Shown here piece by piece: positions 34,201 through 37,200 of a stretch of DNA of 64,000 nt (positions within the stretch are counted from its first letter, which is position 1; every line of letters begins with the position of its first letter). The translations under genes and the position numbers were made by a program. A model generated the notes under the pieces. The model was not told where the DNA came from. It saw only the letters and a program-made list of their open reading frames with translations, and ran no database searches. Origin of the DNA: Rhizaria sp. SCN 62-66 (Eukaryota); the NCBI GenBank assembly GCA_001724265.1, contig MEDY01000163.1:1-64000 (forward strand), in the 5' to 3' direction.

Positions 34201-37200
34201 CGCACGGCAGCAGCTCTAACACCCGCGCGAGCGGTTTCGTTAGCAAAGGCACGAGTACTGAGATTGATCCGGAGACAGCTGCTGACGGTAACGCAGACAG
34301 GGCCACCGAGACCCAGCTTCTTCCCCAGCTCCAGTCCCAGCCTCAGCCTCACGCCGAGCCTGTGCCTGAGCCTGAGCCCGAGCCCCACAACGAGCCCGCA
34401 ACCGCAACTCCAACCGCCACTGCGAGTGCTTCGCAGACCGGTGCCGGCGAGAGCTTGCTGTCGCGCCGCCGCCGCGCGCTCGCGCTGCCGCCCTCGGTCG
34501 CCGCGGCCAATCCAGCGGCGTTGGGTGCGGCCTTTACGCGGGTGTTGGCGTCGCTGCACTCGCGCGCTGCCGCGGCCGCCGCGGCGGAGGCCGAGGCCAA
34601 CGCTGGGACTGGCGCTGGCGCGAGCGCGGACTATTACTACTACAACAATAGTAACAAGTATGGCGGCCAGAGGCCTGGTTTCGGGAGTCATGAAGCTGAC
34701 TATGAGTCTAAGTACTACTCTGCAGCCACCAAGGCCATTGCAACGGGCACGTCGAAGTCTTAGTTTTCGCTCGACGGCGTTGGCGACGACGACGAGGCGA
34801 ATGTGAGTGACTGTGAGCAGTGGGAGCTCAACCAGTGGGCCAAGATTGCCCAACGCCGCCGTTACAAAGACCATCACAGCGCAAACGTTCACGCCGACCC
34901 ATACAGCGCAACTGCTCGTGACCGTGATCCGGAGCCAAGTGACTGTGAGCACATTGAATACAAGCCGTCTCGCCAGTCCGCGGCCGCGAACAGTAGGGAC
35001 TCCGCCGCTGTCGCCGCGGCAGAGGCGGCTGCAGTCGCGGCGGCAGTGGCCGAGGCTGAGTCTGTGGCGCGCCGGCTGGGGCTGAGGCCGCCGCTCGCCA
35101 AGCGGCTCCGCTCTCAGCCTCGGTCACAGAATCAGCTCCGCGACGGTAACGGTAACCAGACTGCTGCTGGCGCTGAGGACAGTGGGAGTGACGGCGACGT
35201 TGACGTCGATGCGCTGCTCGTCGCCTGGCGTGCTCGGCGGAAGCACAACGATGACCACGTCAAAAACGCCAAAATTAACAATGTGCGTGAGAGCAAGTTT
35301 CACCACTTTGACTGCGACGGCGACGACTACGACGACGATGATGATATCGATTCTGTTACGAATATCGCGACGCCGATTAAGCGGAACAAGGATCTGAGCA
35401 AGAACAGTCGTCTCAAGCAGAGTATTAGCAGTTCTAGTCAGACGCCACACGGTCAGCAGAGCCGCAATAGCATTCCCATGCACGACGACAACGACATTAG
35501 CACACACAATGACGACCACTCCCCGTTCAAGCACCTACGTCGCGCCGCAGACCCTGGCGCTAACCCGTACGCGAACAAGTACACGGCTAGTGGCAGTGAC
35601 ATAGATATCGACGCCAACAACAGCTTGCTTGACGCTGATGTTGCCGGAGCTGCTGCTGGAGTTGGTCCTGGTGCGAGCGCGTTAGATGTCACTGAGCTGC
35701 CCACTGACTTTGAAGGCGGCGGCCTTGAGCGAACGAGCGACGATGACATTGACGCTGGGATCAACGATGATTTGTTGCTGTCGCACTCTGACACCCACGA
35801 CAACGACCACACCAACATTCGCGACGCGGACAACGACGAAGACGATGGTGACAATGCCAGCAGTGACGCTGTCGTCAGCACGGCGAGCACCAAGAGCGGT
35901 CGCGTTCAATTCGCCTTTGATCTTGACCTCGACCAAAGCAGCACGGGTCTCTCTCTGGAGCAGCAGCCGCAGCAGCCGTCGCCGCTGCGCCGCCGAGAGC
36001 ACTCGCAACAGAATCCGCAGCATCCGCAGCAGCAGCTGCTGCTGGCTCCGTTCAGTGCACGCAGTGCAGTCACTGCGGCGGACGAGACCGAGCAGCAGCA
36101 ACAACAGCAGCGGCAGCAGCAGAGTGACAGTGAACACAACAACGCGTTGTTTGGGCTTTCGTTGGATTCTCACCCACTAACTGCTCACATCACGAGCACC
36201 ACGCAAAAGCTGCCACAGCAAAAGCATCAACAACAAAGCACACGTGAGAACCACAGCGATACCAACATCACAGCGAGTGGCAGCGACAACAAGGTTGTTT
36301 CTAATCCTAACAAGTCCCTGATCCCCCGTTCGAGCTTAAGCTCCAGCTCGAGCAGCTTGATTTCAAGTGCTTCGAGTTCGAGTATCGACGTTAGCGCCAG
36401 TGATATGAGTGCTGGCGCTCCTGCTCCTCACGCTCCTGCTCCCCACGCTGCTGCTGCTGCTGCTGCTGTTGCTGCTGCTGGCTCTGCTGGCGCTGTTGCC
36501 GCGGCCGGCACCCCCCCGCTCCCAGCTTCTTATCTCCACCCCGCTGCCCACGGCCGCTTTTCCCACAGCCGCTCGGTCTCCGCTGACGCGCACAGCACGG
36601 CTGGCGCCCACAGTCATCTCGGCCCCGGCCTGCCGCTGCAGAGCGGGCTGCGCGTGGTGCTGCCTCACTCACAGTCGCCGTCGCCGGCGCTGTCGGATGG
36701 CGCGGGACCGGCCGCGTGGCCCGCGGCCGCCGTCGCGGCGGCGACCAGAGCGGCGCAGCTGACGTCCTCCAGCTCCTCCAGCGGCTCCACCGAGGCTGCG
36801 GCTGCCGCTGCGGCTGCCACTGCAGTCGAGGCGCCGGCGAGTGCCGGTGTTAGCAGTGCTGCGAGAGCGGGCTCGAGCGAGAGCGCGCGTGCCAGAGACG
36901 CCGTCTCTGTCTCCGTCGACGGTGCCGCCGCATCTGCCCGTGCTGCGGGGCAAGAACACCCGCCCCAGCCTCAACCCCATCCCCAACCTCAGCCCCAACC
37001 CCAACCTCAGCCCCAACCCCAACCTCAACTTCAGCCCCAGTCTCAGCCGCAGCCTTCGCCTATCACTCCTCGCCTTTTCCCATCGTCTTCCTCAGCCTTT
37101 CGGCCGCGCGCACCCACTGCCACCCCGCCCTCGGCCTCTGCCGCGGCCGCTGCGGCCGTTGCAGCCGCCGCAGCCGCCACAGCCGTCACAGCGACATCGA

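Follow-up and report, generated by a model that had tools for sequence, protein, structure and literature searches.

Two very long open reading frames on the forward strand of a protist contig lie in the same register and are parted by a single TAG codon. This arrangement raises the question of whether the codon is read as an amino acid, ends a gene or has broken one. We analyzed the 64,000-nucleotide stretch of the contig in which the frames lie (the window), together with contigs of the same region from metagenome runs and with related genes from other loci.

Table 1. Positions in the window of the TAG-bearing coding regions and of their interruptions.
Feature	Position	Strand	Remark
Continuous intronless coding region	31269..40988	+	ATG 31269 to TAA 40988, 3239 codons, one internal TAG
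Upstream part, 1164 codons	31269..34760	+	long polyglutamine run near 33268-33430
In-frame TAG, codon 1165	34761..34763	+	unchanged in the X3 and X4 contigs that bridge the site
Downstream part, 2074 codons	34764..40988	+	first ATG 35478
Giant gene for a secreted or membrane protein	41745..63999	+	>7400 codons, runs off the window
Five in-frame TAGs of the giant gene	41886, 42237, 42792, 43380, 43383	+	codons 48, 165, 350, 546, 547
One-base frameshift in the giant gene	45590..45596	+	in the window and X3 (at 45593); X4 and X6 have one base fewer and are in frame

The window, its host and the samples

The gene content of the window is that of nuclear DNA from a GC-rich, intron-bearing eukaryote. 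It comprises an intron-split RPL11 gene, two tRNA-Val genes, a teneurin-like EGF gene, a TCTE1/DRC5-like LRR gene, two huge low-complexity genes, and a giant gene for a Sushi/TIG surface protein. The TCTE1/DRC5-like gene points to a flagellate host, given the known role of that family. It occupies 28200-30770 on the minus strand, head to head with the interrupted gene, and its atlas hits were TCTE1-like LRR clusters only. A relative of it with 57% identity (P0034) lies on a 21-kb contig, which was sought for synteny with 0 of 210 matches confirmed. In the RPL11 gene (1-770, minus strand), a segment that hardly varies among most eukaryotes is unusually divergent, and this divergence suggests a host from a long-branch lineage. 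A rhizarian or cercozoan host would be a tentative guess.

The two tRNA-Val(CAC) genes (2234-2305 and 2395-2470, minus strand) adjoin one another and are strongly unlike each other. A secreted-looking protein encoded at 4306-5595 (minus strand) is strongly biased in its codon use and has, at its C-terminus, a cysteine-patterned domain that presumably resembles the saposin fold; an atlas search with the protein of 4309-5331 gave no firm hit. The teneurin-like gene (6358-13530, plus strand) combines Kelch and teneurin-like EGF repeats with a signal-like start and a hydrophobic end, and its last exon has a GC3 of 0.95. One of the two low-complexity genes (14205-27515, minus strand) is intronless, Ala-rich, and 4436 codons long; it matches no Pfam family and is free of in-frame stops.

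The region was found in bioreactor, wastewater, and activated-sludge metagenome runs. At least half of its words are carried by 4 of the 10 listed runs, which are spread over three studies; one run (X1) is a possible source of the contig and was excluded from the strain comparison, as were X7-X10, whose share was small or zero. Strain comparisons used the contigs of runs X3, X4, and X6, and run X5 is a polyA RNA library. X4 represents a separate strain that was sampled in another study; its contigs show 26 differences from the window over 4075 bases and, elsewhere, 25 over 5082 (~0.5-0.6% diverged). Among the strain differences listed for positions 33700-49972, 13 of 28 transitions lie at CpG sites. 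This bias hints at CpG methylation, yet CpG is barely depleted in the non-coding DNA (0.93).

The coding region around TAG 34761

The frames 31146-34763 (1205 codons from stop to stop) and 34764-40988 proved to be in register with the TAG as their sole separator, as an earlier note on the sequence had described, and with TAG counted as sense they fuse into one frame of 3280 codons. The TAG is genuine and common to strains. It is spanned by an X3 contig (record 2, 34546-35300, 755 bases) and by an X4 contig (record 10, 34568-35040, 473 bases), each with 0 other letters and 0 gaps. These unchanged bridging contigs, one of them from a different strain in another study, largely rule out the base-calling error that the earlier note had allowed for. 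An error of sequencing or assembly has next to no probability; nothing speaks for it beyond the risk that attends any metagenome contig of low depth.

The GC content behind the TAG does not drop as at a gene end. In consecutive 90-nt steps it is 0.59, 0.59, 0.67, and 0.77, whereas behind the EGF gene it declines from 0.69 to 0.53-0.28, and the TAA at 40988 is followed by a fall to 0.32 and 0.30. The observation that no AT-rich spacer follows the TAG was thus borne out. The residue make-up is alike upstream and downstream. A gap without ATG does follow the TAG, although it measures 238 codons and not the approximately 225 first estimated, and it is not odd in itself because gaps of at least 300 codons occur at three other places in the same gene. 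The chance of 238 open codons after the TAG is p 0.017 or 1.6e-5, depending on which of two off-frame stop densities is used.

On the evidence of frame and composition, and because neither a gene-end signature nor a good intron is seen, 31269-40988 is a well supported continuous coding region, in agreement with the earlier proposal of a single gene of ~3,240 codons. A single transcript is predicted; none of the X5 RNA contig pieces listed covers position 34761. Six of the listed pieces fall in the downstream part, and the first of these (34971-35166) lies upstream of the ATG at 35478; such a library can contain DNA. No Pfam family scored above cut-off in either half of the gene. The gene has 251 Gln codons and encodes a low-complexity protein, probably disordered, in which Ala, Ser, Gln, Pro, and Asn abound.

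The hallmarks of programmed single-site readthrough, in sequence context or 3' structure, were not seen at the TAGs of the window. Specifically, no 3' hairpin lies behind TAG 34763 (downstream fold z 0.16), and the context of this codon is not Gln-stop-Gln. The base following the six TAGs of the window is T, G, C, G, T, and T, which is no permissive readthrough context, and the RNA folds at six sites reach z below -2.5 in two cases and have no common shape.

In searches with 300 residues around the TAG, no orthologue across the site emerged from the 8000 candidates scored, which were 165-525 residues long, or from the 135 viral contigs that matched a pattern. The listed strain differences in the gene are 2 synonymous and 8 non-synonymous (dN/dS 1.5-2.0 on these 10 sites). 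The gene thus bears no sign of constraint, which would fit a dead gene or a low-complexity gene alike. A random nonsense change in this gene would also yield TAG more often than any other stop (58-61%), so that the gene alone cannot separate readthrough from a nonsense allele.

The neighboring giant gene and its relatives

The next gene downstream has a signal-peptide-like start and encodes Sushi, IPT/TIG, and ephrin-receptor-like domains. All five of its in-frame TAGs fall within codons 1-547 of 7417 (the first 7%; p ~2e-6 if stops were uniformly placed), and no TAA or TGA stands in frame before its frameshift. The TAGs at 41886, 42237, and 42792 are unchanged in an X3 contig, and 42237 and 43380-43385 are unchanged in an X6 contig. 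An X4 contig covers all five TAGs, and 7 of its 26 differences are among those listed. A contig of the X5 RNA library that crosses 43380-43385 unspliced is a hint drawn from bin depths and was not counted as evidence.

The TAG-bearing part keeps the start, the signal-like segment, and the frame. Alignments with four paralogues (28-36% identity) run on without a break at each of the five TAGs, and for this reason the TAGs cannot be the ends of introns. In a structure model of low confidence (mean pLDDT 43.7) the TAG sites lie outside the predicted strands. Of the 42 columns that are invariant in the other four proteins, the N-terminal part agrees at 27, and none of the five has a lower share. 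Protein databases store this start of the gene as four stop-bounded fragments. The GC3 of the gene is ~0.5, as compared with 0.82-0.95 in two other long genes.

Neutral decay that had produced five stops would imply ~217 substitutions and 2-9 frameshifts, and the stretch with the TAGs contains no frameshift (p 0.11 to below 0.001). The predicted share of TAG among random nonsense changes in the giant gene is 0.41-0.44. Downstream of the TAGs, the listed strain differences comprise 15 synonymous and 11 non-synonymous changes, giving a dN/dS of ~0.3 (p 0.001-0.006 on these 26), though the TAGs predate the strain split. X4 lacks the frameshift of the window but has its own, with one base missing at 43735. 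Two strains thus each carry a different one-base frameshift in a gene in which the listed substitutions still look selected. Local hypermutation toward TAG was considered as a source of the cluster and rejected: off-frame TAG occurs 7 times in this 547-codon stretch, a rate close to that of the remaining codons, and non-coding DNA shows no depletion of CAG (0.96).

The paralogue family of the giant gene (P0006-P0011, L122, and L124) shares a beta-rich, unnamed N-terminal region. Among 17 metagenome matches, 13 were dropped and 4 kept as relatives; these represent two loci, because L133 is identical to L122 and L137 is the same gene as L124. Queries of viral and genome contigs confirmed nothing, and 9 genome matches yielded only two weak hits. 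The L122 gene (L122:2-14992, plus strand) is 38% identical over 3195 aligned residues. It has 4996 open codons with no TAG, ends in TAA, and reveals a multi-pass membrane C-terminal region in the family. The L124/L137 gene, from another metagenome, carries a single TAG, present in both assemblies, within a conserved cysteine-rich domain; the domain is otherwise well kept (52% identity), with K, S, and E opposite the TAG. L137 also has a TGA at a Trp site near its end, seen in a single assembly, and frameshifts. These lesions may be assembly errors because L124 ends before the TGA and one of the frameshifts, and it does not have the other frameshift. P0011 looks frameshifted as well. The strain frameshifts, L137, and P0011 indicate that genes of this family do break, although some of the lesions may be low-depth errors.

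How UAG may be read

All six in-frame stops within the coding sequence of the window are TAG, and L124 adds one of one. Under random decay six TAG-only stops have a probability of p ~0.009, or 0.004 with L124 included. Gene ends in the window are TAA (4 of 5) or TGA (1 of 5), and the lack of a terminal TAG (0 of 5) is a weak signal (p 0.14-0.44 by chance). UAG is rare and clustered, with 6 in ~17,000 codons and none in frames of 4436, 1921, and 4996 codons, the last being that of L122. Were it an ordinary Gln codon, four genes should contain ~48, 35, 12, and 31 of them, whereas the observed counts are 0, 1, 0, and 0. The earlier note had taken the gene at 31269-40988 as a second locus in support of UAG recoding. 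That view stands in so far as the in-frame stops of the window are exclusively TAG and L124/L137 carries a TAG in a conserved domain. The gene itself adds little alone, with TAG its likeliest nonsense product and neither an orthologue nor constraint to be seen, and the rarity of UAG contradicts a long-established, fully used reassignment.

The residues opposite the six aligned TAG sites are L, A, S, R; A, P, P, A; E, T, S, T; S, N; K, S; and K, S, E. None of the sites is at a conserved column and no single residue stands opposite. Gln is opposite in 0 of 6, where real Gln sites match in 2 of 14; Leu is opposite in 1 of 6, compared with 32 of 50 real Leu sites; Trp is opposite in none and scores lowest of the 20 residues. 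The best-scoring residues are Ser, Lys, Thr, Asn, Ala, Glu, and Gln, and hydrophobic and aromatic residues score worst. On these alignments Leu, Trp, and Tyr appear disfavored at UAG. No tRNA with a CUA anticodon was detected in the window (whose only tRNA genes are the two for Val), L122, L124, or L137, and no eRF1 gene was present in the window or these relative loci.

On balance we lean slightly toward a rare, recent, or incomplete decoding of UAG as a polar residue. UAG-only interruptions in neighboring and related genes suggest that the host occasionally reads UAG as an amino acid. Its ribosomes would insert an amino acid at UAG, and UAA and UGA would remain stops. The analysis shows the sequence pattern, its sharing between strains, and, for the giant gene and L124, the collinearity with paralogues; translation through TAG 34761 is what we infer. 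The decoder may be a scarce CUA tRNA or a near-cognate tRNA-Gln competing with eRF1. In such a recent or incomplete state UAG would be decoded poorly or in competition with the release factor; for this reason it would be barred from most coding sequence, and it would survive only at loose sites such as disordered protein and surface loops. The inserted residue may be small or polar, with Gln preferred, supplied by a CUA-anticodon tRNA or by first-position misreading by tRNA-Gln, and with Glu, Ser, and Lys compatible. The clustering in the first 547 codons would be explained only by assuming looser constraint there.

A standard code has, in our view, a substantial but minority claim. TAG 34761 would then be a nonsense mutation, fixed before the strain split, in a low-complexity gene that is dispensable or needs no more than its first 1164 residues. 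The giant genes would be a birth-and-death family with many broken copies, and the excess of TAG would reflect chance and codon make-up. The bias of nonsense changes in gene 31269-40988 toward TAG (0.58-0.61) and the neutral look of its strain differences (2 of 10 synonymous, among those listed) agree with this, as do the giant-gene frameshifts at 45593 (window and X3) and 43735 (X4), the frameshift-like end of P0011, and the three other long frames without TAG. The TGA and frameshifts of L137 would also fit, if they are not the assembly errors that they may be. The residues S, K, E, and L opposite the TAGs have codons one step from TAG. Nevertheless, a standard code requires that all six stops be TAG by chance, that no frameshift arose in a stretch with five TAGs and yet purifying selection acts downstream of these older stops, and that 9.7 kb of gene 31269-40988 acquired neither a second stop nor a frameshift in the window. 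The lean of the listed transitions to CpG would moreover favor TGA over TAG. Neither UAG decoding nor broken genes account for the clustering and the frameshifts together.

It is improbable that TAG 34761 is never an internal stop at all, either because an intron removes it or because one gene ends at 34763 and a second starts at the ATG at 35478. The earlier dismissal of introns had covered only those ending at the AG of this TAG. When donors within 400 nt upstream were compared with the two plus-strand introns of the window, 34658 alone resembled the window's own. It agrees with the consensus at 3 of 4 positions, and the introns that it would form with 3 of the 11 acceptors nearby (ending at 34807, 34879, or 34906) keep the frame, an option outside the earlier dismissal. 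These candidate introns, however, have a coding-like GC content of 0.57 and a pyrimidine share of 0.30-0.55, as compared with 0.34-0.39 and 0.80-0.90 in the real introns. The lack of a listed RNA contig piece across 34761 would suit splicing or two genes; two genes are at odds with the missing GC drop or spacer and with the 238 open codons that precede the ATG. Both leave unexplained the TAGs of the giant gene and L124, where paralogues are collinear. A-to-I editing acts on premature stops in some fungi, and conversion of UAG to a Trp codon would account for a TAG-only pattern with rare sites. However, the residue scores at the aligned sites run directly against Trp, and we regard editing as very improbable.

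Rare UAG decoding can be set beside published codes, as described in the portions of the cited papers on which we draw. The nuclear code of Iotanema spirale reassigns UAG only, to Gln, with 204 UAG in 126 genes (PMC5304391). Hartmannula sinica and Trochilia petrani likewise have a UAG-only code, in which UAG makes up 18.5-31.8% of Gln codons and occurs in 78-84% of genes; the full range in that paper is 78-91% of genes (PMC11687900). As in these three species, in-frame stops in the window are UAG only; the five gene ends of the window, all UAA or UGA, would also agree, and a polar residue seems to fit best. In contrast to theirs, which are common and face conserved Gln, the UAGs of this GC-rich host are few, clustered, and nowhere opposite Gln. 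UAG is read as Leu in the rhizarian exLh, where it is widespread, faces Leu at 82 of 86 hyperconserved sites, and is scarce in highly expressed ribosomal-protein genes (PMC5304391), and in uncultured phyllopharyngean ciliates (PMC11687900). The uncoupling of UAG from UAA would be shared with these organisms, but Leu scores low here and faces only one site. In Oligohymenophorea sp. PL0344 UAG encodes Glu and UAA Lys (PMC10553269). Glu would be compatible with our sites (E opposite at 2 of 6), whereas UAA ends most genes of the window and is never in frame. The proposed decoding would work like the UAG-only reassignments, but we do not class the genome of the window as a member of them because it does not use UAG widely, which is one of their defining features.

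Leaky termination offers a further comparison. In Gln-rich yeast mRNAs Gln is reported to be inserted by near-cognate readthrough, through first-position misreading by tRNA-Gln, at levels of 2-8% that apply mostly to [PSI+] strains and flanking Gln codons (PMC13192750). Gene 31269-40988 resembles that case as a Gln-rich low-complexity gene with a premature stop that may stay functional through leak. It differs in that TAG 34761 has no flanking Gln codons, and at such levels hardly any product would survive the five serial stops of the giant gene, which is poor in Gln. The neutral spread of internal stops in Euplotes (PMC10235951) is a model for passable internal stops drifting in before equilibrium, although those stops cause frameshifts and the frame here is kept across each TAG. 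In the literature surveyed, we found neither a rare-use UAG-only nuclear code nor a code change in a sludge protist.

If the genes are simply broken, the finding is an ordinary one. We raise, as a doubtful possibility, an early and ambiguous nuclear code change in a widespread free-living wastewater flagellate, in which UAG has gone from gene ends and a polar residue competes with termination at a few loose sites. Under this reading, which we hold to be less likely than not, UAG-only reassignment could be observed at an intermediate stage in a living organism, whose lineage may have no known code change. Known UAG-only nuclear codes are confined to a handful of lineages, all with UAG already widely used, and this host would, if the reading is true, add a new, rare-use variant. 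Host genes would then be mis-called in protein databases. The order of terminal UAG loss, decoder gain, eRF1 change, and spread into genes would become directly testable, and the DNA and polyA RNA of the host are already in public wastewater runs.
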